Shown here piece after piece: positions 693 to 15,893 of a DNA stretch of 64,000 nt (positions within the stretch are counted from its first letter, which is position 1; each line of letters starts with the position of its first letter). The translations under genes were made by a program, and so were the position numbers. Origin of the DNA: Planctomycetota bacterium (GTDB taxonomy: Bacteria > Planctomycetota > UBA1135 > UBA2386); contig OZ245838.1 of the NCBI GenBank assembly GCA_965228735.1, positions 6,624,001 through 6,688,000 of the forward strand, in the 5' to 3' direction. The notes beneath the pieces are model-generated. The model did not search any database and was not told where the DNA came from. It saw only the letters and a list, made by a program, of their open reading frames with translations.

Positions 693-1217
693 TTACCGCG
701 CTTCGGTCGCGCCCTGCAGCACCCGCCGGGCGCGCGCGAGGCGGGAGCGGACCGTGCCGATCGGGACGCCGAGCGCGATCGCGATCTCCTCGTAGCTCTT
801 GCCGGACGACTCGAACAGGTGCAGCACCTCGCGCTGCTCCGGCGTCAACGACTCGCGCGCGGCGGCGAGGGCCTCGCCGAGCTCGTGCGCGACCGCGACG
901 TGGATCGGGTTGTCGCACTCGTCGTGCAGCTTGCAGTGCGACGACGCCACGTGCTCGTGGTGGCGCCGGCGGCGAACGGTCCGACGCAGGTGGCGGCTGC
1001 GGTGCACGACGGCAGCCGCGAGCCAGTAGCGCGGGTCCGCGGGCGGTTCGGGCTGCGAGACCAGCGCGAGCAACGCCTCTTGCAGCGCGTCCTGGGCGAG
1101 GTGGTCGCAACCGAGGAAGCGTCGCGCGATGCGCAGCAGCCGACGCAGGTCGGCGTCGGAGAGATCGGGAAAGTCAGGTTCACCGCGAAGCGGCGCGGCG
1201 AGTGTGGAAACCGACAT
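693..1217 (-). CDS. ECF-type RNA polymerase sigma factor with His/Cys-rich linker
   Basis: Region 2 (LAQDALQEALL, YWLAAAVVHR) and region 4 (SYEEIAIALGVPIGTVRSRLARAR) motifs; 174 aa. Confidence 0.9.
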   Translation of the reverse strand: MSVSTLAAPLRGEPDFPDLSDADLRRLLRIARRFLGCDHLAQDALQEALLALVSQPEPPADPRYWLAAAVVHRSRHLRRTVRRRRHHEHVASSHCKLHDECDNPIHVAVAHELGEALAAARESLTPEQREVLHLFESSGKSYEEIAIALGVPIGTVRSRLARARRVLQGATEAR

Positions 1218-1301
1218 GCGGTCACCCGTGGGGATTCAGTGCAGCGGGAACGGCCGGTGCGCCGCAGGCGTGCGGACGCAGTCAGCGCTCGAAGCGAGAA
1301 C

Positions 1302-1784
1302 TCAGGCTTCGGCTGCCGCCGGGGGCGCGCGCGATGGTGGGATCCGGACCGGTCGCGCCCGGGTCTGCGAGGTCACGTCGACGCGGTCGTGGTCGAGCGC
1401 TCCGCGGGCGAGCTGCCAGTCGACGCTCGGCGCGAAGCCGCATGGCGTGCCCATCTCGAGCTCGCATGCGAAGCACACGTGGCCGCACTCGGTGCCGTCC
1501 TCGACGCTATCCGTGCCGCTCGGCACTTCACGTTCAGCTGGCCCGTGATCGAGGCCGCAGCTGCACTGGTGGACCGGTGCCCCAGTAGCGCTCGAAGCCG
1601 CGATCGAACCCGCAGTCGAATCCGCAGTCGAATCCGCTGGGGCGTGGCCGTGATCGTGCCCGCAGGCGTGGGTATGCAGGCCCGGCAGCGCGATTCGCAA
1701 TGCGATCGCGAGCAACGCCAGCCCCACGAACAGCCGGGCGAAGCGGCGCTCGAGGCGGTGGGGGTTGCGGGTCGGGTTGGCCAC
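1302..1784 (-). CDS. Exported His/Cys-rich leader protein with CxxC and C-terminal RAPP motif (DUF2946/CruR-like)
   Basis: RR plus hydrophobic N-terminus, HTHACGHDHGH, CGHVCFAC, ends PPSRAPPAAAEA; GTG start. Confidence 0.7.
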   Translation of the reverse strand: MANPTRNPHRLERRFARLFVGLALLAIALRIALPGLHTHACGHDHGHAPADSTADSTAGSIAASSATGAPVHQCSCGLDHGPAEREVPSGTDSVEDGTECGHVCFACELEMGTPCGFAPSVDWQLARGALDHDRVDVTSQTRARPVRIPPSRAPPAAAEA

Positions 1785-1879
1785 GGGGGCAAGGAGGTTA
1801 CGACCGCCGACCCGGCTTGGGAAGGGGTGGAATGGCCTTCAGGCCCACAGCACCGGCCCGCGACCGGCTTCGATTTCGT

Positions 1880-1904
1880 GGAACTCGCGAGTCGCAGCGG
1901 CACT
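1880..1904 (+). promoter_or_regulatory. Putative ECF promoter upstream of secretin
   Basis: GGAACTC-N12-GGCACT, ending 8 nt before GTG at 1913; motif repeated at 3988-4013. Confidence 0.55.
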
Positions 1905-1912
1905 CCGGCCGC

Positions 1913-3934
1913 GTGACGGTGTCCCCTTGCTTTCGTTCGCGGTTCTCGCGTTTCCTGCGCTCCGGGGCCGCGATCCTCGGCGCTGCGGCCGTCTTCGGCG
2001 GGCCGATCGTCGGGTTCTCGGGCGCTGCCGTCGCTCAGGGCGAGACTCCTCCCGAACCGCGCATCGTGACGCTCGGCACCCACCAACGGCTGCCGTTCGA
2101 CCGCGACGTCGAGCGCCTGGCCGTCGGCAGCGACACGGTGCTCACGGTCGACCTCATCAACACCCGCGAGGCGCTCGTGCTCGGCGGCTGCATGGGCACG
2201 ACGACCGTCCTCGTCTGGTACACCGACGGCACCTACGAGTCGCTCCTGTTCCGCGTGCAGCGCGACCTGTCCGTGCTGCAGCGCGCCCTGCGTGACATCT
2301 CACCGGGTGTCGTGGTCGAGATGGCCTCGGATCGGAACGCGCTGGTCGTGCGCGGTGTCGTGCCCGATGAACTGCGCCGTCAGGCCGTGCTGCGCGCCGC
2401 CGACAACTACCTCGCGGCCGGTGCGCCGCTCGACGTCGCGGTCGGTGCGCGCGACGCGTCGACGGCCGCGACGGAGCCGGCCGAGGTCCAGCTGTCGGAT
2501 CCGAGTCGCGAACCGGCGTCCCAAGTCATCGACCTGCTGCGTCTCGCCGAACTGCCGACGACCCTCGAGGACCGCATCCTCGAGGCGATCCGACCGATCG
2601 CCGGTCCCGACGTGCAGGTGCGCCGCCTGCAGCGCAACCCGCTGCGCGACGACGAAGAAGACGTGCTCGTGCTCGAGGGGTCCGTGCCGGACCAGATCGC
2701 GCTCGTGCGCGCGATGCAGCTCGCGGCGCAGCTGTTCCTCGGCGATTCCAACGCGGCGAGCGCGAACCGGAACGCGATCCAGGTGCTCGCCGACGAAGCG
2801 GGCGGCTTGCTCGGGCAGCGCGGCAACCTCGGCGGTGGCCAGGGCGCCGGTCAGGGCGGCCAGGGCGGTGGCTTCGGCGGCGGCGGGCAGGGCGCGGGTG
2901 GCTTCGCCGGTGGCGGCGGCGTCAACGTGCAGCGCAACGAGATCCAGCGCAACCTCGGCCGCGCGACCATGCTGTCGATGGCGCGCGGTCGGATCCTGTC
3001 GTTCGTCGAGGTGCGCGATCGGCCGCAGGTGCGGGTCGCGGTGCAGTTCTTCGAGATCGATCGCGATCGCCTGTTCCAGTTCTCGTCCGAGATCCAGGGG
3101 CTCGTCTCGGACTTCGACCAACCGCCGCTCGTGCCGGCCGACGTCGCTGGTCGCATCCAGCCGACGCCCGCGAACGTCGGCGCGTTCTCCGACAGCGACG
3201 TGCAGGCCGGCCTCGCGTCACTGACGCGGGGCTTCAGTCAGCAGATCCAGGTGAGCGGCCGGCGCTTCGCGCTCGACACGCTGCTGCAGGCGCTCGAGGC
3301 CCGCGGGATCGCGCGGCGACTTTCGGGTCCCGTGGCGACGGTGCTGAACGGTGAGACCGCGCAGTTCCAGGTCGGCGGCGAGATCCCGGTGCCGCAGGCG
3401 TTCACGCCCGCGGCCGGCGCGAACGCCGGGCTCGGCACCTTCGCCTCCGTCGACTTCCGCGCGTTCGGCGTCGGGCTCGGCATCCGCCCGCTGGTCGGGG
3501 CCGACGACGACGTGACCCTCGACCTGAGCTCGATCGTGTCGCAGCCGGATCAGATCCTGACGACGGTCGTGCGCGACGCGACGGGCACCGACCCGCAGAC
3601 GACGGCGTTCTCGACGCGCGCGCTGCGCACCAACGCGCGCCTGCAGGACGGTCAGAGCCTGCTCATCGGCGGGCTCGTCTCACGCTCGCAGCAGAGCGAC
3701 GTGTCGAAGACGCCGATCCTCGGCGACCTGCCGCTGCTCGGCTGGTTGTTCCGCTCGACGAACGACACCTACGGTCAGTCGGAGCTGTTCGTGCTCGTGA
3801 GCCCGAGCGTCGTGCGGCCGCCCGTGCCGGGCAGTGATCTGTGGCTGCACCCCGGGCTCGGCGAGACGCTGGCGGGGTGTCTGCCGAAGCGGCCTGCCGC
3901 CGCCGAATCGGGCGACACATCCGGCGAGGAGTGA
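1913..3934 (+). CDS. cpaC: Tad pilus secretin (CpaC/RcpA family)
   Basis: Signal peptide, pilus N-domain (GTTTVLVW), secretin motifs LNGETAQFQVGGEIPVP and KTPILGDLPLLGWLFRS; start GTG 1913 or 1919 uncertain. Confidence 0.9.
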   Translation: MTVSPCFRSRFSRFLRSGAAILGAAAVFGGPIVGFSGAAVAQGETPPEPRIVTLGTHQRLPFDRDVERLAVGSDTVLTVDLINTREALVLGGCMGTTTVLVWYTDGTYESLLFRVQRDLSVLQRALRDISPGVVVEMASDRNALVVRGVVPDELRRQAVLRAADNYLAAGAPLDVAVGARDASTAATEPAEVQLSDPSREPASQVIDLLRLAELPTTLEDRILEAIRPIAGPDVQVRRLQRNPLRDDEEDVLVLEGSVPDQIALVRAMQLAAQLFLGDSNAASANRNAIQVLADEAGGLLGQRGNLGGGQGAGQGGQGGGFGGGGQGAGGFAGGGGVNVQRNEIQRNLGRATMLSMARGRILSFVEVRDRPQVRVAVQFFEIDRDRLFQFSSEIQGLVSDFDQPPLVPADVAGRIQPTPANVGAFSDSDVQAGLASLTRGFSQQIQVSGRRFALDTLLQALEARGIARRLSGPVATVLNGETAQFQVGGEIPVPQAFTPAAGANAGLGTFASVDFRAFGVGLGIRPLVGADDDVTLDLSSIVSQPDQILTTVVRDATGTDPQTTAFSTRALRTNARLQDGQSLLIGGLVSRSQQSDVSKTPILGDLPLLGWLFRSTNDTYGQSELFVLVSPSVVRPPVPGSDLWLHPGLGETLAGCLPKRPAAAESGDTSGEE

Positions 3935-3987
3935 TGCGGTTACGGCGAGCCAGCACGGTCGTCGGACCACGTTTTTCGCGCGATTCG

Positions 3988-4013
3988 GGAACTCCCGTAC
4001 CCGCACCGGCACT
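3988..4013 (+). promoter_or_regulatory. Putative ECF promoter upstream of Flp pilin
   Basis: GGAACTC-N13-GGCACT, second copy of the motif at 1880-1904. Confidence 0.55.
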
Positions 4014-4079
4014 AGCCCCGTGACGCGGGTGTTCGCGTCCCCGGTTTCCCAACGCCTCCCCGTCAGAACAACGACTCCA

Positions 4080-4442
4080 ATGATCAAGCTCCTGCAGAAC
4101 AAGAAGGGCTCCGCCCTCGTCGAATACGGCCTCCTGGTCGCCGGCGTCGCGCTCGTCAGCGCCGTCTCCGTGTCGATCTTCGGCCACAAGACCAACGACC
4201 TCCTGGCCGCGACCGCGACGATCCTGCCGGGCGCGCACGACGACGACAACGGCCCGATCGTCAGCGCCAAGCTGATCGAGACGACCCGCGACCCGAACAA
4301 CAACGACGCGATCATCCTCGATCCGGCCGCTGCGGCGACCGAAGCGCCGCGCCTCGGCAACAACCTGCTCGGCGCGAGTTTCAACGCCCCGGGCGGCTCG
4401 GGCAACGTGCTCGGCTCGACGCTCGTCATCGAGGCGAACTGA
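4080..4442 (+). CDS. flp: Flp family pilin with C-terminal extension
   Basis: MIKLLQNKKG/SALVEYGLL: Gly cleavage site and EY Flp motif followed by a hydrophobic helix; 120 aa. Confidence 0.9.
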   Translation: MIKLLQNKKGSALVEYGLLVAGVALVSAVSVSIFGHKTNDLLAATATILPGAHDDDNGPIVSAKLIETTRDPNNNDAIILDPAAAATEAPRLGNNLLGASFNAPGGSGNVLGSTLVIEAN

Positions 4443-4455
4443 GCCGTCGGGTTCG

Positions 4456-4488
4456 GACCACGACCGCGCTGTCCCGCGTGTCGTGGTC
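4456..4488 (+). terminator. Hairpin downstream of pilin (attenuator or mRNA stabiliser)
   Basis: gaccacgac/gtcgtggtc stem extended by cgcg/cgcg; no U-tract. Confidence 0.35.
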
Positions 4489-4598
4489 GTCGAACTCGTC
4501 GACTGCTCGCGCGATCGCGGTCACCTCGATGCGGGGTGCCCGCGTTCGTGCGTTACGGGCGATCCCCGTGATTGCCGTCCCCAGCTGACCGACTCCCC

Positions 4599-5072
4599 AT
4601 GACTCCGCCGCTCGGACCGAACCTGGCCGCCTTCGCGCTGCTGCTGGTCGCGGTCTGGACCGACCTGCGCGGGCGGACGATCCCGGACACGATTCCGATC
4701 GCGATGGTCGTGCTGGCTCTTCTCGCGACCGCCTTCGGCTGGCACGCGGTGAGCTTCGCCGGACTCGGACTCGGCCTCGCCATCGGGTTCGGGCTCGGGG
4801 CGCTGTTGTTCTACGGCGGCGCGATGGGTGGGGGTGACGCCAAGCTGTGCGCCGGGCTCGGCGCGTTCTGCGGCTGGTCGCGGCTGCTCGAGGTGCTCTT
4901 CGCGACGGCGCTGTGCGGTGGGGTGCTCGCATACTGGGCGAAGCGTCGCGGTCAGCGCAGCCTGCCGTACGCGCCGGCGTTCGCCGCCGGCTATGCCGTC
5001 ACGGTCGCCATCGCGTGGACCCTGCCGCCGACCGGCGGCCTGTGGGAGCTGATCACCGGGAGGTCGACGTGA
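4599..5072 (+). CDS. cpaA: Prepilin peptidase (A24 family, CpaA/TadV)
   Basis: TDLRGRTIPD and MGGGDAKL aspartic peptidase motifs, multi-TM. Confidence 0.9.
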   Translation: MTPPLGPNLAAFALLLVAVWTDLRGRTIPDTIPIAMVVLALLATAFGWHAVSFAGLGLGLAIGFGLGALLFYGGAMGGGDAKLCAGLGAFCGWSRLLEVLFATALCGGVLAYWAKRRGQRSLPYAPAFAAGYAVTVAIAWTLPPTGGLWELITGRST

Positions 5073-5959
5073 TCGGTGCCGCGCGTCGTGTTGCGCGCGC
5101 TGCCGAACGCGGCGCCATCATGGTCGAGTTCGCGCTCGTTGCGCTCGTGCTCTACTTCCTGCTCGGTGCGCTGCTGTCGTTCGGCACGATGATCCAGAGC
5201 GCGCAGGTCGCGCAGGACGTCGCGCGACTCGGCGCGCGTGAGCTCGCGCTCACGGCGTTGCCCGCCGAGCTGACGTTCGAGGAAGCGCTCGATGCGACGC
5301 GCGATCGCGTGTTCGACCCGAACCGGCTCGTCGTCGATCTCGAAGTGCTCGCGGACCAGGGCATCGAGATCGAGGACTACTTCGCGACGCTGCCGTTGGT
5401 GAACCGCGCGCTGCGGCCGGTCTTCGTCTACGACGTCGTCGCTGGCCGCCGGCTGCTGCGCTTCCCCGGTGCGGTGCTCCAGTCGCCGGAGCCGACGGTG
5501 TTCAACGCCGGCCTGACGGTCGGCGTGCCGCTCGTCGTGCAGCGGGGCGCGGACGGCGAGACGATCCGCTGGCTGCCGATCGTCGAGGAGGTGCGGCCCG
5601 ATCCCGCCGATCCCGCAACGGGTTCGTTCTCCGCTGCGGCCACCGGCAGCGACCGCGCGTTCGTCGCGCTCCGCATCAACATTCCCGCGACGGCCGCGGC
5701 CCTCGCCGAGTACGACGGTCCGAGCACGTGGCCGCCGGCAACCAACGCGGGCCAGCCGCACGAGGTCGGGCCGGTGACCGCGCTCGCCGGGTCCGTGCCG
5801 CCGTACGGGACGCCTTTTGCCGGCGCCGTCAGCGAAGGGCCCGGCGCCATCGGCGGCGAGCAGGGGCTCGGCGAACTGGGCGCGCTCGGCACGCCCGTGC
5901 GCCCGTTCCGCCGCGTGTTCCTCGGCCAGGCGTTCTTCCGCCGCGAGGTCTTCCAATAA
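5069..5959 (+). CDS. tadE: TadE-like pseudopilin
   Basis: RG/AIMVEFALV and AQDVARLGARE motifs; GTGA overlap with cpaA. Confidence 0.8.
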   Translation: MIGAARRVARAAERGAIMVEFALVALVLYFLLGALLSFGTMIQSAQVAQDVARLGARELALTALPAELTFEEALDATRDRVFDPNRLVVDLEVLADQGIEIEDYFATLPLVNRALRPVFVYDVVAGRRLLRFPGAVLQSPEPTVFNAGLTVGVPLVVQRGADGETIRWLPIVEEVRPDPADPATGSFSAAATGSDRAFVALRINIPATAAALAEYDGPSTWPPATNAGQPHEVGPVTALAGSVPPYGTPFAGAVSEGPGAIGGEQGLGELGALGTPVRPFRRVFLGQAFFRREVFQ

Positions 5960-5999
5960 CCGCCGCCGCCTCCTCCTCCCGACTCCAGCGATCGACATC

Positions 6000-7076
6000 A
6001 TGGCTTCCCGTCACCGTCCTGTTTCTCCGCGCACCCGGCCGCGACTGCGCTCGGCGTCGTGGTTGCTCGTGCCGATCGGCGGCTTCGCGCTGCTCCTGCT
6101 CGGCCTGATCGTCTACGTCACGGTCGTCGGCGAACTGCGGTTGCCGTTCGGCGACGGCGTCGTGTTCGCGTTCGGCAAGGAGGAGCAGAACGAAGCGAGC
6201 GCGAACGTGCGCACCCTGCCCGAGGGCACGGTCGGAGTGTTCGCGTGCCCGCGTAAGCTGCCCGCGTTCACGAAGATCACGCGCGATCACCTGCTCACCG
6301 CCGACGGGTTCCACACCGTTCCCGTCGTCGAGTCGGCCATCGAAGCCAACGGTCTGTTCGCGACCGACGTCGACGGTTTGAAGCGACTGCTCGGCCGCGT
6401 GCTGCGGCGCGAGAAGCCGGTCAACTTCGCGTTCAGCGAGGGCGACTTCCTGCCGGTCGGGACCAAGGCCGGACCGAGCGCCGGCATCCCGCCCGGCATG
6501 CGCGGCGTCTGGATCGACGTCGCGACGGTCCCTGGCCTCGCAAGTGCCTCGGCGGGGGATCGCATCGATCTCGTGGCGGCTTCGCAGGCGGCCGATCGTC
6601 CGCCCGCTGACCCGGGGCTGCTCGGCAACGTCGCCGACCCCGTGATGCGGGCGCGCGTGCAGATGCTGGCGACGCAGCCGCGCACTGGTGGCGATACGCG
6701 GTCCTGGGTCGTCGCGCGTCATGCGCTCGTCGTGCAGTCGATGCGACCGCGGCCGTCGAGCGTCGCGCCGAAGCCGGCGGCGGCCAACAGCAAGGGGGTC
6801 GAAGAGGTGTTCGTCGCGATGCAGCCGCAGGAGGTCGCGAAGTTCAGCCAGGCGATGGCCGAGGGTGCGACCCTCGTCGTGGCGCCGCGTTCGGGCCAGC
6901 CGGAGAACGAAGCCGTGGACGAGATCGAGGACGTCGTGCCGCCCGACCCGAGCGCGGCGCTGCGGGAGTTGCTCGTCGGCTCCTCCGGGACCCCGGCGAG
7001 CCTCGGCGTCGTCGAGGTCATCCGCGGTGAGTCGCGCGCGTCGGTGACCGTGCCGCGGGGGCAGGGGGGGCGTTGA
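6000..7076 (+). CDS. cpaB: Flp pilus assembly protein CpaB/RcpC-like
   Basis: One TM, SAF-like region, GIPPGMRGVWI and GDRIDLV motifs. Confidence 0.75.
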   Translation: MASRHRPVSPRTRPRLRSASWLLVPIGGFALLLLGLIVYVTVVGELRLPFGDGVVFAFGKEEQNEASANVRTLPEGTVGVFACPRKLPAFTKITRDHLLTADGFHTVPVVESAIEANGLFATDVDGLKRLLGRVLRREKPVNFAFSEGDFLPVGTKAGPSAGIPPGMRGVWIDVATVPGLASASAGDRIDLVAASQAADRPPADPGLLGNVADPVMRARVQMLATQPRTGGDTRSWVVARHALVVQSMRPRPSSVAPKPAAANSKGVEEVFVAMQPQEVAKFSQAMAEGATLVVAPRSGQPENEAVDEIEDVVPPDPSAALRELLVGSSGTPASLGVVEVIRGESRASVTVPRGQGGR

Positions 7077-8371
7077 GCCGACGGGACGTGAAGCCAACCG
7101 GCGGTGCCGAGGAACGCGAACGGGGTGCGGTGCTCGTGCTCTTCGCGCTGCTGCTCGTCGGCATGTTCGGAATGCTCGCGGTGCTCGTCGACGGCGGGCG
7201 CCTGCGCGTGACCCGGCAGCAGATGGATGCCGGCGTCGAGCACGCCGCGCTCGAGGGTGTGCGCTTCAAGGACAGCGAGGGCGACGCGGGGCGTCGCCTG
7301 CGCGCTCGCATCGCGATGGCGCGGCAGTTTGACGACGATTTCGTCCTCGAGAACGGCGATCGCATCGGCTTAGGGGCCGGCACGGTAGCGATCGTCACGC
7401 CGGGTGCGCAGGCGCCGCTCGGTGGCCGTCTCGATGTGCCGTTGGCTCCGGTCGCGCGTTACTGGAAGCCCGATCCGGATCCAGCGAACCCTGAACCGCC
7501 TGACCCTGAGTCGGTCTTGCAGGACAACCTGGCCAACGCGACTCACGGAGACTTCGTTGCCGGCACCCACGATCCGGGTGCGGGAGAACCGATCGAGGAC
7601 GATCTGTTCCAGCGCAACGACTTCGTGGCAACGACGTTCGGCAGCTCGACCGCGGAACTGGCCGCGGCCCCAGCGTTCCTTGCACGCCTGCGACGCGCCA
7701 ACGGGCGGCTCGCGCTCGACCGCCAGCTCGGAGTGAGTTCGGCTGGTCCGCCGTTCGAGTATCTGTGGGCGCGCGGTAGTGCGTGGCGCGAACCGGGGCT
7801 GGGCGAGACCAACGCGAGTCGAGCGGATGGCCTCACCGTGCGCGCCGCGGCGATCGCGAGCACGGAACGTGCCCTCGTCGTCACGGCTTTGCCCGGCAGC
7901 GGCCTCGCGATGGCGCCGTTCGCGCTCAGGGCCGAGCCTGCCTCCAGCTGGTCGGGCACCCTCGTCGGTGACTCGCTGGTCGTGACCGTCGACTCGATCG
8001 GCACGTTGACGCTCGGCGGGCAGGAGGAGGGCGCCGTGTTCTTCGCGGCAGGCTTCGCACCTGTGGTCGGGCTCACAATCGCCCCGAGGCCGGGTGACGT
8101 TCCCTCGATGCCAGCTGGCCAGTTGATCGTACCGGTGTACGGGATCGTGGGCACGATCCGGCGCATCGCCGGATTCACTCTCGCCACTGCGACGCTTGTC
8201 GGTGACGAGTTGACCGTGATCCGAGTGCCTGGCGGCGTGCTGCCGGCCGGCGCTTCGGCCATCGCACCGGCAGCTCTCGACGCGCGCGTGGAGCTGGGGC
8301 GCGACCCGGCGCTGCGCGCGCTCCACCAGTCGTTTCCATTCCCCGTTCTCGCACCAGCTCTCCGCCGCTAG
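7073..8371 (+). CDS. tadG: TadG-like pilus tip/pseudopilin protein
   Basis: ERG/AVLVLFALL...AVLVDGG...QQMDAGVEHAALEG Tad N-terminal motif. Confidence 0.75.
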   Translation: MSRRDVKPTGGAEERERGAVLVLFALLLVGMFGMLAVLVDGGRLRVTRQQMDAGVEHAALEGVRFKDSEGDAGRRLRARIAMARQFDDDFVLENGDRIGLGAGTVAIVTPGAQAPLGGRLDVPLAPVARYWKPDPDPANPEPPDPESVLQDNLANATHGDFVAGTHDPGAGEPIEDDLFQRNDFVATTFGSSTAELAAAPAFLARLRRANGRLALDRQLGVSSAGPPFEYLWARGSAWREPGLGETNASRADGLTVRAAAIASTERALVVTALPGSGLAMAPFALRAEPASSWSGTLVGDSLVVTVDSIGTLTLGGQEEGAVFFAAGFAPVVGLTIAPRPGDVPSMPAGQLIVPVYGIVGTIRRIAGFTLATATLVGDELTVIRVPGGVLPAGASAIAPAALDARVELGRDPALRALHQSFPFPVLAPALRR

Positions 8372-8373
8372 CG

Positions 8374-9555
8374 ATGTCCCGTCCAGTTCCAATGCTGTGG
8401 ATCGGCGACGATCCTGACCTTTCGACCGAGGTCGAAGCCGCGATCAGCGGGCTCTCCGATGTTCGCGTGCTGCCGCGCTTCGCGGACGACACCCGCGTCG
8501 GTCTGCGGCTCGCTCGCAGTCAGCAACCCGAAGTGATCGGGCTCGCGAACCTGCCGGCCGTCGGTGGGCTCGACGCGACGGTCGAAGAGCTGCGGCTGGC
8601 GGTGCCGGGTGCTGCGATCGTCGCGTTGCTCGATTCGCGGCGATTCGACAGCGGCGATGCCGAGAGTGCATTCCTCGTCGAGGCCACGCGCGCCGGTCTG
8701 CGCGACTTCCTGCGGCGGCCGTTGTCGTCGGCCGAGCTCGCGGCCTGCCTGCGGCGGCTCACCGCGGGGGCGGGGCGCGCGCAGTCGGGTGAGCAGGGGA
8801 CGGTGACCTGCTTCACGAGCAACAAGGGCGGTGTCGGCAAGACGACGCTCGCGGTGAACGTGGCGGCCGAGCTCGCGCAGCGCGAACCCGGCAGCGTGCT
8901 GCTCGTCGATGCGGCGCTGCAGCTGGGCCTCTGCGCGACGATGCTCGATCTCGAGCCGGCCGTGACGATGCGCGACGTCGTCGATCAGATCGACCGGCTC
9001 GACGGGACGCTGCTGCGCGAGATGGCCGAGACGCACGAGTGCGGTCTCGACCTGCTCGCGGCGCCGGGTGATGCCGTCGAAGCTGCCGACGTCTCCGAGG
9101 AACACCTGTCTCGCATCCTCGCCGTCGCGCGTGCGACCTACGATCATGTGATCGTCGACACGTTCCCGATGCTCGACGGCATCGCCATCGCCACGTTCGA
9201 CCGCGCCGACACGGTGTGGCAGGTCGTCGCGCCGACGGTGCCGACGGTGCTCGGCGCCGAACGGTTGATCGGCCTGCTCGAAGGAGTCGGCGTCGAACCG
9301 GCGCGCCAGCGCATCGTGGTGAACACCTCGGTGCCGTCGCACGCCGGCCAGCTCTCCGCGCGCGATGTCGCGACCCGACTCGGGCGTGACGTCGATATCG
9401 TGATCCCGTTCTCCCGAGCGGCCGTGGCCTCGTGCAACAGCGGCCGGCCCGTGGTGCTGGCGAGCGCGCGCTGGAGCGGTTTCCGCCGACGGGTTCGCGA
9501 GCTCGCGGACCTCCTCGAGCAACCGAACCGCGCCGCGCTGGAGGCCGTCGAGTGA
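8374..9555 (+). CDS. cpaE: CpaE/TadZ pilus assembly protein (receiver-like plus MinD-type ATPase)
   Basis: KGGVGKTT deviant Walker A, N-terminal receiver-like region (AGLRDFLRRP). Confidence 0.88.
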   Translation: MSRPVPMLWIGDDPDLSTEVEAAISGLSDVRVLPRFADDTRVGLRLARSQQPEVIGLANLPAVGGLDATVEELRLAVPGAAIVALLDSRRFDSGDAESAFLVEATRAGLRDFLRRPLSSAELAACLRRLTAGAGRAQSGEQGTVTCFTSNKGGVGKTTLAVNVAAELAQREPGSVLLVDAALQLGLCATMLDLEPAVTMRDVVDQIDRLDGTLLREMAETHECGLDLLAAPGDAVEAADVSEEHLSRILAVARATYDHVIVDTFPMLDGIAIATFDRADTVWQVVAPTVPTVLGAERLIGLLEGVGVEPARQRIVVNTSVPSHAGQLSARDVATRLGRDVDIVIPFSRAAVASCNSGRPVVLASARWSGFRRRVRELADLLEQPNRAALEAVE

Positions 9556-11093
9556 CCGAGCCGCCGCCGATGCCGGACCCCGCGACTCCGGGTTCCGCGG
9601 GCGATTCGGGCACGAGCCGGAAGCGCGTCGATCGGGCGCTGTTCCGCGGTTCGCGGGCGGCCGACATGACGGCGCGCATCCGCGCGGCCAAAGGCTCGGG
9701 CGCCGCGCGTGCCGAAGCGACGCCGCGTCCGGCCGCTCGCCCCGAACGCCCCGCCACCGACTACGCGTCGGTCAAGGGCGAGCTGCAATCGCGCCTGCTC
9801 GAAGAACTGTCCGACCGCGAACTGCTCGGGGCGGACGAGGCCCGCATCGGCGCGTTCGTTCGCGAGTTCGCCAACCAGGTGCTGTCCGAAGAGGACGTGC
9901 CGCTCAACGAACGCGAACGCGAGCAGCTCGGGCGCGACCTGCTCCAGGAAACGCTCGGGCTCGGACCGCTCGCGCCGCTCGTGCTCGACCCGGCGGTGAC
10001 CGACGTGCTCGTCAACGGGCCGAACGACGTGTTCGTGGAGCGGCATGGGCGCTTGGAGCGCAGCGACGTGCGCTTCCGGGATGCCGAGCACCTACTGCGC
10101 GTGATCGAGCGCATCGCCGCGCGCGTCGGCCGCCGCATCGATCAGTCGGCGCCGATGGCGGACCTGCGGCTGCCCGACGGCAGCCGCGTGAACGCGACGA
10201 TTCCGCCGGTCTCCATCGACTACCCGACCCTGTCGATCCGCCGCTTCGGGCACCGCCGGCTGCGCAGTTCGGACCTTCTGCGCTACGGCTCGCTGAGCGA
10301 TCCGATGCTCGCGTTCCTGCAGGCCGCCGTCCGCTGCCGCATCAACATGGTGATTTCCGGCGGCACGGGCGCCGGCAAGTCGACGTTGCTCGGCGCGCTC
10401 GCCGAGGCGATCCCGTCCACCGAGCGGATCGTCACGATCGAGGACACGGCCGAACTGCTCCTCGATCAGCCGCACGTGGTGCGGCTCGAGAGTCGCCCGA
10501 CGAACTCCGAGGGCGCCGGCGAGATCACGATCCGACAGCTGGTGATCAACTCGCTTCGGATGCGGCCGGATCGCATCCTCGTCGGTGAGGTTCGCAGCGG
10601 CGAAGCGCTGGACATGCTGCAGGCCATGAACACCGGGCACGACGGCAGTCTCACGACGGTGCACGCGAACTCGCCGCGCGACGCGTTGAGCCGCCTCGAG
10701 ACCATGGTGCTCATGGCGGGCACGGAGTTGCCGTCGCGCGCGATTCGCGAACAGGTCAGCTCGGCCGTGCAGCTGCTCGTGCACGTCAGTCGCGGCGAGG
10801 ACGGCGTGCGGCGGATCGAGAGCATCAGCGAGATGACCGGCCTCGAGGGCGACACGCCGTTGCTGCAGGAGATCTTCCGCTGGCGGCGATCGGGTCGCGG
10901 CGAACGCCGCATCGAGGGCCGATTCGAGCCGACGGGCATCACGCCGCGCATCGCCGACCGGCTGCGGAAACGGGGCGCCGACGTGCCGCAGCAGTGGTTC
11001 CACGGCGCCGGCGCGGCGAGCCTGCACGGTGGCGGGGCCGACGCAACGCGCGAGGCCGACGGCGGCCATGCGGATCCGCGGGGGCGGTCGTGA
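9552..11093 (+). CDS. cpaF: Tad secretion ATPase CpaF/TadA
   Basis: [47 protein letters not shown]. Confidence 0.95.
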
Positions 11094-11857
11094 GCAGCAC
11101 CGCGATGGGGCAGCGGCCGATCGCGCGCGCTGCTCCCGAACCCGTGCGCGTCGGTCACGACGCGGCCCGCGGTCGCCTCTGGGTCGGCATCGTCGTCGGC
11201 ACGATCGTGGCGCTTCTGGTCGCTCTGCTGTGGGACCAGATCGAGGTCGCGATCGCGTTCGGCGCGCTGACCGGGGTCTTGGCGTGGATCGTGGACGGGT
11301 GGTCGGTGGCGTCTCGCACGATCCGGGTCGAGACCCAGCTGGCCGATGCGCTCGACCTGCTCGGCTCGAGTGTGGCCGCCGGCGTCGGCCTCGTGGAGGC
11401 AATGCAGGGCGTGGTGCGGGACGTGCGGCAGCCGTTGCGGGGCGTGCTGGCCGCGGCGGCCGAGCGGTTGCGCCTCGGCGATGACCCGCAGCGCGTGTTC
11501 GAGGAGGCGCAACGGGCGCTGCCGCTGTCGGCGTTTCGGCTGCTCACGCATTACCTCAGCGTCCAGTGGCAGAGCGGCGGCGCGATGGCGCCGGGCCTGC
11601 ACGCGATCGCCGAGACGGTGCGCGACCGCGTCAACCTCGCGCGGCGCATCCACAGTCAGAGCGCCGAGGCCCGCTTCTCCGTGCTCGGGATCCTCGCCGT
11701 CGTCTACTTCATCGCGATCCTCGCCTGGACCAACAGCCCCGAGCGCGTCGAGGACTTCGTGTTGTCCGAGATCGGTGGCGGCATCGTCGCCGGTTGTGTG
11801 TTCCTGCAGGCCGTCGGCCTCGTCTGGATGGCGCGGTTGACGCGGATCGAGCTGTGA
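11090..11857 (+). CDS. tadB: TadB inner membrane platform protein
   Basis: T2SSF-like: [30 protein letters not shown] overlap. Confidence 0.88.
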
Positions 11858-12771
11858 CCTCTACCGTCGTCATCGCGATTGCTTCCGCGCTGGCGATCGC
11901 GTTGCTCGTAGCCTGGCTGCGGCAGCGTTCGATCCGGCTCGCGGCGCAGGAACGGCTGGCCTCGAGCTCGCTGAGTGGAGTGGCGTCCCGCCCCGTCGCC
12001 GTTTCGGGTGTGCCTGACGATGCGGTTGCGCGGTGGCTCTTCCTCGCGGGAGAACGCGGCCCCGGCGCGGTCGGTCGCTTCTGGTGGTCGACGACCGTGT
12101 TCGGTCTGGTGGGCCTGGTCCTCGGGCTGGTCGCGCTCGCGTCCGGGCTGCTGGGGCTCGTGAACGACGCGCTCGTCGGGATCCCGGGCCGCGTCGGCTA
12201 CCTGTTCGTGCCGATCGTGTTCCTCGTGCCCGTGCTGCTGCCGCTCACGTTCGCGGCGTGGCCGACGGCGCGGATCCGCCGGCGACGCCGAGCGCGGGTG
12301 CAGCTGCTGCTGCGCGATCTGTATCCCGTGCTCGAGCTGTTCGCGAGCCTCGCGCAGGCCGGGTTGGCGTTCGACGCCGCGCTGGCGCGCGTCTTGTCGA
12401 CGCTCGGTCCGGAGCAGCCACTCGGACGCGAACTGCTGACGTTCCAGGCGGAGGTCATGGGCGGCGCTGATCGCCCGGAGTGCTTCCGGCGGCTCGCGCG
12501 ACGGGTCGCGTTGCCGCAGATGAGCAGCTTCTGTTCGGCTCTGATCCGGGCGCACGAGGTCGGCATCGGCCTCGCGACCACGCTGCGGCGGCAGGCGGAC
12601 GACCTGCGCAGCGAACTTCGCGAACGGGCGCTCGCGCGCGCCCAGTCGCTGCCGGCGCGCCTCGTGTTCCCGCTGGTCCTGTGTTTCCTGCCGGGCATCT
12701 TCGTGATGAGCCTCGGTCCGGCGTTCTATGGCTTCCTCGTCGGTACTACCGGCTTCGGCGTTTCTCGATGA
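11854..12771 (+). CDS. tadC: TadC inner membrane platform protein
   Basis: [31 protein letters not shown] overlap. Confidence 0.88.
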
Positions 12772-13454
12772 CTCTGTCTCGCGTACTTCCACTCTCCTCG
12801 TTCGCCGTCGCGCTCGCATTGACGTCGTGCGCCGTCTGGGATCCCGACTACGAGCCCGATCCCGACGTCGTTCTGCGTGACCTCGTGGACGGCCTCGACG
12901 ATCGCAGCGAGCCGCTGAACCCGGTCGAGCGGCAGCGCCTGCAGCACGCGATCGAACGCCTCGCCACGCGGCATCCGACCCACGTGCCGAGTCAGGTCGC
13001 GGCGGGCGCGTGCGCGATCGGCGCGGGCGAACCGCAGCGGGCGCAGGGCTACGTCGATCGCGCGCTGTCGCTCGAGCCGCGGCACGTCGAGGCGCGGGCG
13101 TTGCGCGTGCGCATCGCGGTCGCGGACGGCAGTCTCGATCTCGCGCGGCGCCTCGTCGACGACGGCCTGCGCCTGCGCCCGGACGCCGCCAGGCTGCACG
13201 AGTCCTCGGCCTGGCTACATCAGCTCGAGCAGCGCTGGGACGATGCGTTGGCCGCCCTCGACACCGCGGCCGAGCTCGACGCCCCGGCCTGGCGACTCGC
13301 GTTCCACCGCGGCCTCATCGAAGAACAACGCGGCAACCCCGAAGCGGCGGAGACCCACTTCCGCGCCGCGCTCGACGCGAACGAGAACTGCACGCCGGCA
13401 GCCCAACGCCTGAAGGCGCTCGTCGCCCAGCGCAAGATCGCCGAACGCCGGTGA
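12768..13454 (+). CDS. TPR lipoprotein (TadD-like pilotin)
   Basis: Lipobox LTSC, TPR-like helical repeats, last gene of the tad operon. Confidence 0.75.
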   Translation: MTLSRVLPLSSFAVALALTSCAVWDPDYEPDPDVVLRDLVDGLDDRSEPLNPVERQRLQHAIERLATRHPTHVPSQVAAGACAIGAGEPQRAQGYVDRALSLEPRHVEARALRVRIAVADGSLDLARRLVDDGLRLRPDAARLHESSAWLHQLEQRWDDALAALDTAAELDAPAWRLAFHRGLIEEQRGNPEAAETHFRAALDANENCTPAAQRLKALVAQRKIAERR

Positions 13455-13529: not shown

Positions 13530-15734
13530 TCAGAAGACCAGGCGGCCCGTTACGCCCCAGGTCTGGGGGGTGCCGTTCTGGCCGACGAACTGGGTCGGGT
13601 CGGCCGGGTTGGCCTGGAACGCGATCGGCACGTACTCCTCGTCGAACGCGTTGTGCAGGAAGACGGCGAGGTCCCAGCCGACGTTGCCCACCTCGCCATT
13701 GGCACCGAGGCGGAAGTTGACGAGGTCGAACTCGTCGGCGCCGAGGTTGCCGGCGTCGTAGTAGAACTCGCCGGTGTGGAACCAGTCGGCGCGCGCGTAT
13801 GCGGCGACGTCGTCCGTCAGCTGCTGCATGTATTGACCGCCGAGGCTCGAGGTGAACTCGGGCGCGAACGGCAGGTCGTTGCCCGCGACGTTCTGGCCGA
13901 AGGAGTCGGTGAACGCGTCGAACTCGGTGTCGAGGAAGCCGGCGCTGCCGAAGACGGTGAAGCCGTCACACACCACGGCGCTGACCTCGAGCTCGACGCC
14001 GCGGCTCGTCGACTCGCCCGCGTTCGTGACATAGCCACCGGCGGTCGCGTCGAACTGGCTGAGCTGCATGTCCTGCCAGTCGATCCAGAAGAGCGCGACG
14101 TTGGCCTGGATGCGCTCGTCGTACCAGTCCGTCTTGGCGCCGATCTCGTAGGTCCAGCTCGTCTCGGTCGAGAACGACTCGTTGCCGGACGGCGCGGTGA
14201 GGTTGAATCCGCCGGCCTTGAAGCCGCGCGAGGCCGACGCGTAGGCCGTGACGCGATCGCAGACGTCCCAGCCGAGGCTCGCGCGCGGCAGGATGCGTTC
14301 GAACGCGCGGTCCTGATCCGTCGCGCTGACCGGCACGGTGAAGCCGCCGGACTGGAACACGCGCGTGATCCGCGCGTCGACCTCTTCGTAGTCGTAGCGC
14401 AGCGCGATCGTCGCTTCGAAGCGGTCGCCGAACGGCACGGCGAGCTGCCCGAACGCGCTGATCGCGAGGTTCTCGAAGTTGCCGCTCGCGTCGTCCTGGC
14501 CGACGTTCGTCACCGGGAACAGGATGCCGGCACCGCCGGGACGGAAGTCGTTGATGGCCGAACGCGTCGCGTCGCTGCGGAAGCCGCTCATGCCGACGAG
14601 CCAACGCGGGCCGGTCGCCGAGTCGGACGACTCGAAGCGGATCTCCTGGTAGATGTAGTCCTGCTTCTCGTTCGTGAAGCGGCGCACGCCGTCGAGCTGC
14701 GAGAAGTCGAAGTCGGCCGACTCGTCGATGTCCCAGCCCTGCGCCGAGGTGATCGACTTGAAGTCGAACTGCTCGCCGTAGTAGTCCCACACGACCGACG
14801 CGGACAGGATGTCGCGATCCGTCTCGCCGACGAAGTCCTGCGCGATCCGATACGGGTTGTTGCGCAGGCCGGAGGGGCCGCCGAGCGGCGCCAGGACGAA
14901 GCCACCGTCGCGCGTCTCCTCGCCGTGCAGAACCACGCGCACGACGGACGAGTCGCCGGCGTTCCACAGCAGCTGCGCCCGGCCGAACGCGCTGTCGCGC
15001 GAGTCGACGTCGCTGTTGGTCACCGTGTTGGTCGTGTAGCCGTCGCGCTTCTCGTAGGAGCCGCTGAAGCTGAAAGCGAGCTCGTCCTCGATGATCGGGC
15101 CGGTCGCGGTGACCTCGTGATACTGGCTGTCGTAGTTGCCGAGCGTCGTCCGGAAGTCGGCGCCGTAGTCGAACCGCGGTTGCTTCGTGATCAGGTTGAT
15201 CGCACCGCCGACCGTGTTCCGACCCCAGAGCGCGCTGTTCGGCCCGCGCATGATCTCGACGCGGTCGAGCCCGGCGAACGACAGGTTGGTGTTGCTCGTG
15301 CTGAGCTGCGGCACGTCGTCGACGAACGTCGCGACGGCCGGATCGCCCTCACCCGAGCCGACGCCACGGATGTAAGGAAAGCTCAGGCGCCGGGCCGAGA
15401 AGCCCGTGACGAACGTGTTGGGCACGTAGCGCGCGGCCTCGTCGATCGCGCGAATGCCGGCCTGCCGGATCGTCTCGGCCGAGATCGGCGTGATGCTCAT
15501 CGGCACGTCCTTGACGTTCTCATCGCCCCACTTCTGGGCGCTCACGACGATCGGCTCGGTCGTGCGGCGCGGTTCCTGACCGTCACCTGCCCCGGCACTC
15601 GGAGTGCCGGACGGGATCGGTGCATTCACCTTCGCCGGCGGATCCTGCGGCGGGTCCTGGGCGACGACGAGATCGGTGAGGGCGAGAGCGGCGGCGAGGC
15701 AGCCGCTCGTCGTGGCGAGGGAGGTGTGCGTCAC
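13530..15734 (-). CDS. TonB-dependent outer membrane receptor
   Basis: Signal peptide, TonB-box-like EPIVVSA, plug motif DRVEIMRGPNSALWGRNTVGGAINLIT, terminal Phe; GTG start inferred (ATG 15833 alternative). Confidence 0.93.
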   Translation of the reverse strand: MTHTSLATTSGCLAAALALTDLVVAQDPPQDPPAKVNAPIPSGTPSAGAGDGQEPRRTTEPIVVSAQKWGDENVKDVPMSITPISAETIRQAGIRAIDEAARYVPNTFVTGFSARRLSFPYIRGVGSGEGDPAVATFVDDVPQLSTSNTNLSFAGLDRVEIMRGPNSALWGRNTVGGAINLITKQPRFDYGADFRTTLGNYDSQYHEVTATGPIIEDELAFSFSGSYEKRDGYTTNTVTNSDVDSRDSAFGRAQLLWNAGDSSVVRVVLHGEETRDGGFVLAPLGGPSGLRNNPYRIAQDFVGETDRDILSASVVWDYYGEQFDFKSITSAQGWDIDESADFDFSQLDGVRRFTNEKQDYIYQEIRFESSDSATGPRWLVGMSGFRSDATRSAINDFRPGGAGILFPVTNVGQDDASGNFENLAISAFGQLAVPFGDRFEATIALRYDYEEVDARITRVFQSGGFTVPVSATDQDRAFERILPRASLGWDVCDRVTAYASASRGFKAGGFNLTAPSGNESFSTETSWTYEIGAKTDWYDERIQANVALFWIDWQDMQLSQFDATAGGYVTNAGESTSRGVELEVSAVVCDGFTVFGSAGFLDTEFDAFTDSFGQNVAGNDLPFAPEFTSSLGGQYMQQLTDDVAAYARADWFHTGEFYYDAGNLGADEFDLVNFRLGANGEVGNVGWDLAVFLHNAFDEEYVPIAFQANPADPTQFVGQNGTPQTWGVTGRLVF

Positions 15735-15893
15735 GGCGAGATCGGGCGAAACGAGTTCGCGGGCGGCGAACACTACGCAGTCGTGCGGTCGGTCGCGAGA
15801 CCGGCATTCGGGTTCTCGCGCTTCCTGGCTCATGCGTGACGGCTTCGTGACAGTGGCCGTGGACGTTCGCCCGAAACCGGGCATGATGGCGGG

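Follow-up and report, generated by a model that had tools for sequence, protein, structure and literature searches.

The window analysed here is a stretch of 64,000 nucleotides from a Planctomycetota bacterium (GenBank assembly GCA_965228735.1, contig OZ245838.1, positions 6,624,001 to 6,688,000); positions are counted from its first letter. Near its beginning, a short leader gene precedes the gene of an extracytoplasmic function (ECF) sigma factor, and a complete Tad pilus cluster (about 1913-13454) is divergent from the leader. The features of this region are as follows.

693..1217, minus strand: ECF sigma factor, 174 aa, Pfam Sigma70_r2 and r4_2 above cut-off
1218..1301, minus strand: intergenic gap of 84 nt; with the start of the sigma gene, richer in C than G and pyrimidine-rich, a candidate Rho loading zone (composition, folding)
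1302..1784, minus strand: leader open reading frame, 160 aa, a CruR/DUF2946-like predicted arrest peptide (translation, alignment, profile comparison)
1320..1331, minus strand: RAPP, the predicted arrest motif, five residues ahead of the stop
1464..1475, minus strand: CxxC (CFAC), 44 residues ahead of RAPP, C104 and C107 invariant
1545..1676, minus strand: histidine and CxC clusters, with H37, H39, H43 and C76 invariant in alignment A1
1571-1545, minus strand: HQCSCGLDH (leader translation)
1676-1644, minus strand: HTHACGHDHGH (leader translation)
1683..1733, minus strand: hydrophobic signal/anchor segment, ending in a conserved R-x-x-L-P-x-x-H (alignment A1)
1795..1800, minus strand: TAACCT, a sigma70-type -10-like hexamer 10 nt before the leader GTG, predicted near-leaderless housekeeping promoter of the leader-sigma pair
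1872..1903, plus strand: predicted ECF promoter for the divergently oriented Tad operon, GGAACT (1880-1885)-N12-CGGCAC (1898-1903), 31.7 bits, the top site of the genome with a matrix trained without this genome
1913..3934, plus strand: Tad secretin (RcpA/CpaC), Pfam Secretin and T2SS-T3SS_pil_N, start inferred at 1913 or 1919
3980..4012, plus strand: second predicted ECF promoter, ahead of flp, GGAACT (3988-3993)-N13-CGGCAC (4007-4012), 25.2 bits, the fourth site of the genome
4080..4442, plus strand: long pilin of the Flp/Fap type, 120 aa (weak match to Pfam Flp_Fap, under the cut-off)
4572..13454, plus strand: remainder of the Tad cluster (Pfam): A24 peptidase, TadE, CpaB and TadG-like proteins, a CpaE-type ATPase, the CpaF ATPase, two T2SSF proteins (TadB/TadC) and a TPR protein

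A TonB-dependent receptor gene (13530-15773, minus strand) converges on the end of the Tad cluster and has no promoter site above 11 bits upstream.

Translation of the leader frame gives a protein that ends in PPSRAPPAAAEA and a stop codon, and places at defined coordinates the three His/Cys clusters, the hydrophobic stretch and the terminal RAPP that had been described for this frame in an initial annotation. That annotation had also proposed an export signal consisting of a twin arginine and a hydrophobic stretch. The hydrophobic part stands (a 15-mer of mean 2.49 behind a basic n-region, conserved in A1). The arginines do not stand as a Tat motif: the Tat consensus is S/T-RR-x-F-L-K, from which ERRFARL departs, and the RR column is not conserved in A1, so that the leader as a Tat substrate was rejected. 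The sequence of 600-2200 is identical in contigs of three public runs, one of which is possibly the source itself. A RAPP can arise by chance in GC-rich frames, as had been cautioned. In the 7.19-Mb genome, R[AG]PP occurs within 22 aa of the stop in 299 stop-to-stop frames, and among these the leader alone has a strongly hydrophobic segment together with a CxxC 30-60 aa upstream. In the 4,792 genes called by our own codon model, RAPP is present 5 times and AAPP 105 times, RGPP 7 times and AGPP 63 times; thus, the motif is avoided in this proteome, and the layout of the leader is unlikely to be a product of chance.

The arrangement of leader and sigma factor is real and conserved in many planctomycetes. 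A search of 61 genomes with the sigma factor gave 15 close orthologues (E<=1e-37) in 14 genomes, and the leader lies directly upstream of 11 of these 15, a count to be read in the light of the kinship of the genomes, which makes such counts across relatives not independent. Three copies have no leader (G036, G012 and G003-C6), and one (G002) is cut by a contig edge; L002 is one additional leader-sigma pair beyond the 15. Alignment A1 comprises 13 leaders with a mean identity of 34% and has P34, H37, H39, H43, C76, C104, C107, R152 and P154 in common. The distance from CxxC to RAP[PS] or RGPP is 44-45 residues in all 13 (one counted by hand). Loss of RAPP and CxxC from homologues had been set beforehand as the result that would speak against an arrest peptide; both are retained, at fixed spacing. 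Ten sigma matches are more distant (E 1e-18 to 1e-30): RGPP leaders precede two of them, leaders with an APK[QH]SPP end precede another four, and the remaining four lack a leader. A metagenome scan supplied 80 loci, i.e., three members of the sigma clade and 77 other ECFs as controls: the leader precedes none of the 43 unrelated ECFs with at least 800 nt upstream (34 of the 77 were too short and were dropped), and of the three clade members one has a leader, one has none and the third is too short. In a sample of the phylum (27 sigma loci from 25 of 301 genomes), a leader is present at 17 loci, nine of the CxxC/RAPP type (spacing 43-49) and eight of an xSPP type without CxxC; at nine, an ORF recognised by eye as secretin-like lies downstream of the sigma gene.

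The xSPP leaders form a second type, with a signal segment and His/Cys residues, no CxxC, and an end of (L)APK[QHTN]SPP or APHHSPP, which is a candidate arrest motif. They lie upstream of distant relatives of the sigma factor (L051, L052, L186, L277, L285, L287, L289 and L292-L294), and xSPP does not appear in the text of PMC10987492.

To which family does the leader belong? A scan of Pfam and NCBIfam at E<=1 assigned none. The comparison with DUF2946 (PF11162) proposed in the initial annotation left the leader under the cut-off (9.6 bits, E = 2, profile positions 3-117 of 117; cut-off 23.7), and the same profile run over the whole genome found nothing above it. Weak matches to DUF2946 are present in nine of the 13 aligned leaders (best E 3.5e-4). 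A profile made from the leaders matched 173 cluster representatives, and among the best 150 of these 145 have an R[AG]PP end and 129 have CxxC at 43-46, although the profile itself favours such motifs. When 100 relatives found in this way were scanned, 55 matched DUF2946, 23 of them above its cut-off. Thus, to judge from sequence, the leader is probably a divergent member of the DUF2946/CruR type, homologous to CruR and acting like it.

CruR (Bp2923) of Bordetella pertussis has 45 residues between CxxC and RAPP (PMC9426467), and its translation arrest has been demonstrated (PMC12992588). The leader resembles CruR in its export signal, its CxxC, its C-terminal RAPP at 44-45 residues, its position as first gene of the unit, the long intergenic gap and the C-rich, G-poor RNA, and the CruR/CutF-like layout originally suggested for it recurs, with the spacing of CruR, throughout A1. 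It differs from CruR in scoring below the DUF2946 cut-off, in having extra histidine and CxC clusters, and in what it is linked to: CruR-type leaders head copper-homeostasis units, whereas this one heads an ECF gene, with predicted control of distant loci, and the linked genes and targets point to zinc rather than copper. CutF of Rhodobacter capsulatus is likewise an exported leader with a cysteine motif and, at its C-terminus, a proline stall motif, and the intergenic gap is again short (PMC9973294; bioRxiv 10.1101/2025.02.05.636593). CutF, as described there, has CxxxC, a PPP tail and a hairpin over the Shine-Dalgarno sequence (SD) that opens on copper excess, whereas the present leader has CxxC and RAPP, neither an SD nor a significant hairpin, and predicted targets of the uptake type.

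By analogy with these systems, the leader very probably stalls ribosomes. ECF genes headed by RAPP arrest peptides have been described before: the RAPP/RGPP peptides SLIV_33595 and SLIV_33605 directly precede ECF genes in Streptomyces lividans and arrest translation in vitro and in vivo (PMC12992588). These peptides differ from the leader in having four transmembrane segments, and no metal site or regulon is described for them in the parts of that paper drawn on here. RAPP is also the motif of the Sec/YidC monitors ApdA and ApdP (PMC12992588), which raises the alternative that the leader monitors export or disulfide formation, the stall being freed by Sec pulling or oxidative folding so as to tune pilus and envelope genes. 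The best-conserved predicted target is indeed an envelope machine, and the model for CutF invokes disulfides. However, ApdA, ApdP and SecM lie upstream of secA, secDF or yidC and this leader lies upstream of an ECF gene; members of the leader family stand directly before a zinc receptor-znuACB operon in 13 genomes; and the predicted promoter is common to the cytoplasmic zinc-scarcity genes zigA and folE2. An export monitor is therefore considered improbable.

The gene some 85 nt downstream of the leader had been called a sigma factor, and the ORF at 1217-693 (minus strand), 84 nt away, bears this out: the protein is short, with the sigma2 and sigma4 domains only (PF04542, PF08281 and TIGR02937 above cut-off), as in other ECFs. 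A structure model resembles ECFs of solved structure (for sigma4, an rmsd of 1.1 A to 2h27), and the closest named relatives are in metagenome-assembled genomes of Planctomycetota. No anti-sigma gene was found beside it; the downstream neighbour is a convergent beta-propeller gene. The sigma factor has Cys/His motifs of its own, GCDHLA in sigma2 and HEHxxxxHCxLHxxCDNPxH in the linker, and close homologues have retained them (GCxHxA in 118 of 120, CxxHxxC[DE]NP in 111 of 120). Perhaps, then, the sigma factor itself senses the metal, in the manner of CorE, and the leader is accessory or hitch-hiking. CorE and CorE2 (ECF238) of Myxococcus xanthus are likewise ECFs without an anti-sigma factor that have conserved cysteines and are tied to metals, and CorE2 is controlled by metal through its cysteines (PMC7826278); moreover, three sigma copies lack the leader. 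Against this, CorE2 is activated by metal through a Cys-rich C-terminal extension (in ECF238 about 20 aa), whereas this sigma factor ends in LQGATEAR, with its Cys/His residues in sigma2 and the linker, and is preceded by an arrest leader that has been kept at fixed spacing at 11 of the 15 close copies, as well as at 17 of the 27 loci across the phylum. A sigma factor that is the sole sensor is thus highly improbable. The two layers can coexist: the motifs of the sigma factor may provide a second metal check, which would account for the leaderless copies.

Which promoters does the sigma factor serve? The upstream regions of its neighbours have WWYYNN-GGAACY-N12/13-CGGCAC in common. The recognition helix of sigma4, GTVRSRLARAR, aligns with GTVRSRIFRAR of Escherichia coli sigmaE, in which R171, S172 and R176 read GGAAC (PMC1540707); these three residues are kept and F175 is lost. 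A matrix was built from 11 sites of other genomes, leaving out the genome under study. Applied to its 7.19 Mb, the matrix finds four sites above 25 bits, each just ahead of one of four genes: the secretin (window 1872), a merC-like gene (C1:5296471), DUF1826-zigA (C1:648996) and flp (window 3980). The fifth-best site has 21.4 bits, and six control matrices with wrong spacers peak at 21.2-27.4 bits in the same genome. The likely start codon is within about 10-15 nt past three of the four sites; flp has a leader of 67 nt. The core motif alone occurs at 15 sites with spacer 12 and 15 with spacer 13 (about 7.4 expected), and at up to 16 with other spacers. It is not clearly enriched genome-wide; discrimination requires the full matrix.

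Genes that had supplied no training site were scored against a background whose 99th percentile is 12.6 bits (500 windows). In sigma-bearing genomes, six of seven DUF1826 genes score 12.5-29.4 (the miss is a second copy in G033), and all six merC genes score 18.6-29.0. Where a genome has none but distant relatives of the sigma factor, the scores are 18.5 (merC) and 1.0 (DUF1826) in G031 and 6.3 (merC) in G060; two loci were unplaceable. DUF1826 is present in eight and MerC in nine of the 61 genomes, six of each together with a close sigma factor. G013 has kept the motif ahead of secretin, flp and merC, though there the Tad cluster and the sigma gene are far apart, and in relatives folE2 and the zinc receptor-znuACB operon are also preceded by the promoter. 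A fixed promoter pattern was found in 13 of the 14 genomes with a close sigma factor and in 13 of the 47 without one, and its reverse in 8 of the 61; the test is partly circular. Genomes without a close sigma factor have several motif sites at 23-27 bits ahead of unrelated genes; thus, other ECFs may share the motif. Taken together, the pairing of this sigma factor with GGAACY-N12/13-CGGCAC promoters is predicted with high confidence. The suggestion that placing the leader before a sigma gene would give control at the level of a regulon is plausible, given the predicted multi-locus regulon. No ECF promoter site above 11 bits faces the leader within the window, so autoregulation is not supported.

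One further candidate target was rejected, namely a permease of 610-680 aa in which an N-terminal ZIP-like domain (a match to Pfam Zip under the cut-off) is joined to ArsP_1/SO_0444 and which has a His-rich tail (L049:3976-5922, L039:7261-9162, G000:C1:1041947-1043776). No motif precedes it in the genome under study, a strong site does so in only one of nine relatives, and a second motif match falls inside the sigma gene. The permease gene is at the eda-recC locus, where many relatives have the leader-sigma pair.

The predicted targets bear on the nature of the signal. COG0523/ZigA, DUF1826, FolE2, ZnuABC and an outer-membrane receptor are known as genes of Zur regulons (PMC2770081), and the set predicted here is the same. 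It differs from a Zur regulon in the predicted mode of control, which would be positive, through a leader-gated sigma factor rather than a zinc-bound repressor, and in the inclusion of the Tad pilus. ZigA scores 590 bits in this genome and 614 in G033 (cut-off 600); FolE2, a predicted target in relatives, is above its family cut-off; and DUF1826 is a further predicted target. In relatives, a 445-aa outer-membrane protein is followed by ZnuA, ABC and ABC-3 genes, and the nearest Atlas clusters of this protein are auto-named 'zinc-regulated TonB-dependent receptor' (0.98).

The analysis covered 32 loci of this receptor, seven of them cut by contig ends. At 13 of the 32, a CxxC-x44/46-R[AG]PP leader lies directly upstream and the promoter score is at most 10 bits. 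Seven have the promoter and no direct leader (six of these were training sites, and the seventh, in G036, is irregular at 19.1 bits), and G030 has a weak site of 9.1 bits. Two loci have an xSPP leader, sigma gene and receptor in a row, two have neither leader nor promoter, and none has both a direct leader and the promoter. The leader would thus control the receptor-znuACB operon either in person, from directly upstream, or by way of the sigma factor, never both, and this mutual exclusion is the strongest argument for a signal common to leader and sigma factor and for zinc as that signal. A point against the model is that G012 and G036, whose sigma copies have no leader, retain a promoter site ahead of the zinc receptor. 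In a midpoint-rooted receptor tree of 26 rows, the seven promoter-type receptors are in one moderately supported clade (87/92), together with one direct-leader row and one row of the neither type; the direct-leader rows are otherwise outside it, and no order of events is read from this tree. Receptors of this kind also appear among the rows listed in the source data of figure 4B of PMC12992588, preceded by RAPP uORFs. These are of the same leader type, and the receptor is annotated as in our relatives lacking the sigma factor; they differ in having no sigma step, and the passages of that paper concerned do not discuss them as zinc sensors.

The same cascade of leader and sigma factor could respond to copper or another metal (Co, Ni, Mn) in a general metal-scarcity regulon. 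The COG0523 and ZnuA-type families have non-zinc members too, and the MerC-like and SO_0444-like neighbours are not zinc-specific; the permease beside many sigma orthologues has as its best match the SO_0444 Cu/Zn efflux family (below cut-off) and a ZIP-like N-terminus. An argument against zinc is that CxxC is the copper ligand in both studied relatives, CruR and CutF, CxxC-x45-RAPP being the copper-responsive layout of CruR (PMC9426467). However, no copper chaperone, oxidase or Cu-ATPase is present among the annotated neighbours and motif targets, which are instead DUF1826-ZigA, FolE2 and receptor-znuACB and point to scarcity of zinc, not copper; and the leader has additional invariant histidines. 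A metal other than zinc as the ligand is therefore unlikely, and the signal sensed by the leader is, on the sequence evidence, rather likely to be zinc. Since the predicted targets are uptake and sparing genes, the sigma factor is likely to be on when zinc is scarce, with the polarity of CruR.

CruR stalls without metal and is released with metal, which is followed by Rho termination (Discussion of PMC9426467). A scan of 500-2200 revealed neither a consensus sigma70 promoter nor an intrinsic terminator. In 12 of the 13 leaders, a TAnnnT hexamer is present a short way upstream of the likely start. C outnumbers G from about 1440, across the gap and as far as the beginning of the sigma gene. For pyrimidines, the 170 nt past the leader stop rank at the 97th percentile, but for C>G skew only at the 89th and for YC density at the 65th; 10 of the 13 leaders reach at least the 91st percentile for pyrimidines past the stop, all measured against the background of the genome under study. 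Two rho homologues (C1:681872 and C1:6717103) score just under the TIGR00767 cut-off. The moderate bias in C and pyrimidines, together with the rho homologues, is compatible with Rho termination.

The opposite polarity would be that of CutF, in which a longer stall on metal excess would unfold RNA that covers the start of the sigma gene and so switch on detoxification. The 84-nt gap is in the range of CutF (<100 nt, PMC9973294), the export signal is conserved, and several relatives have a gene for an SO_0444 efflux-like permease in the same orientation as the sigma gene. However, folding of the minus-strand RNA, which had been proposed as a way to find an occluding hairpin or a Rho site, gave no hairpin that stands out: RNA of 1190-1350 folds no better than its shuffles (z = +0.93), and the hairpin/SD model is ranked low for this reason. 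The sigma gene lacks an SD, and in this genome, where near-leaderless transcripts seem to be common, SD-like words are present ahead of only 797 of 3,426 ATG genes (23%). Unmasking of an SD is thus less likely, and the predicted targets are uptake and sparing genes; polarity of the CutF kind is accordingly scarcely probable. As for the step at which expression is decided, Rho and translational control are evenly balanced.

The model that we favour, with slightly better than even confidence in the whole, is that a CruR-type leader stalls in zinc scarcity, the sigma factor is made, and zinc-scarcity genes and the Tad pilus are transcribed. By analogy with CruR, the ribosome would pause at RAPP with the CxxC just beyond the exit tunnel or translocon. 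When the metal is absent, the stall would last and shield the C-rich RNA from Rho, allowing the sigma gene to be transcribed; when zinc is bound, the Cys/His region would fold and pull the chain free, and Rho would terminate upstream of the sigma gene. Once made, the sigma factor would transcribe the secretin/Tad operon, flp, the merC-like gene and DUF1826-zigA in this genome. On this model, the locus adds a sigma relay and a predicted zinc-scarcity regulon to a leader of CruR/CutF type.

The two Fur-family genes of this genome score best as Fur and PerR, not Zur. No match for ZnuA, the receptor or folE2 was found in it, which counts against the favoured model. Possibly, a nascent-chain zinc sensor replaces Zur, the leader acting on the receptor-ABC operon either directly or via the ECF sigma factor, with a regulon that includes the Tad pilus for metal scavenging; this wider reading is tentative, with somewhat less than an even chance of being correct.

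Both studied leaders of the DUF2946 type are copper sensors that act in cis on their own operon, and neither Cu nor Zn has a known riboswitch (PMC9426467). If the favoured model is correct, sensing by arrest peptides would extend to zinc and, via the sigma factor, to control of a whole regulon; a zinc-responsive arrest peptide and a metal-dependent stall amplified by a sigma factor would be added, neither of which was found in the literature searched. It would also account for the regulation of an ECF without an anti-sigma factor, explain how zinc scarcity is handled in a genome without a clear Zur, and tie Tad pili to metal supply. No paper was found on a CxxC-RAPP leader gating an ECF or a zinc regulon, on a zinc-responsive arrest peptide, on the GGAACY-N12/13-CGGCAC promoter, or on a link between Tad pilus, zinc and ECF sigma factor. 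PMC9426467 names a few planctomycete homologues of CruR, and the passages and supplement text searched mention no sigma neighbour. The text of PMC9973294 does not mention a sigma factor, its neighbour table lying outside the search. The top 30 downstream classes of PMC12992588 include Crp/Fnr regulators and no sigma class, and a sigma listing elsewhere in its data is possible.

Several minor observations were made at the predicted target loci. Stand-alone extra copies of flp with their own promoter site are present at L108:5981-7268 and L111:10316-10693, one of them followed by a COG0523 gene. At L281 (G282:C38), a leader-sigma pair is followed by a promoter site of 14.8 bits and a gene with a prepilin-type N-terminal methylation motif in place of a Tad cluster. 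The merC-like predicted target of this genome (G000:C1:5295945-5296420, L061) is split over two frames and is intact in relatives, making it a candidate for an assembly error or a pseudogene. Beside DUF1826-zigA, two motif sites of lower score, arranged back to back (17.0 and 14.6 bits; L060:8180-8920 and 6937-8061, G000:C1 about 648,090), precede a gene for a 246-aa protein and a divergent one for a 374-aa secreted protein, which are possible extra targets. Integrase-like and transposase-like ORFs, recognised by eye, lie upstream in this region, and a gene for a beta carbonic anhydrase is situated 1.7 kb beyond zigA.
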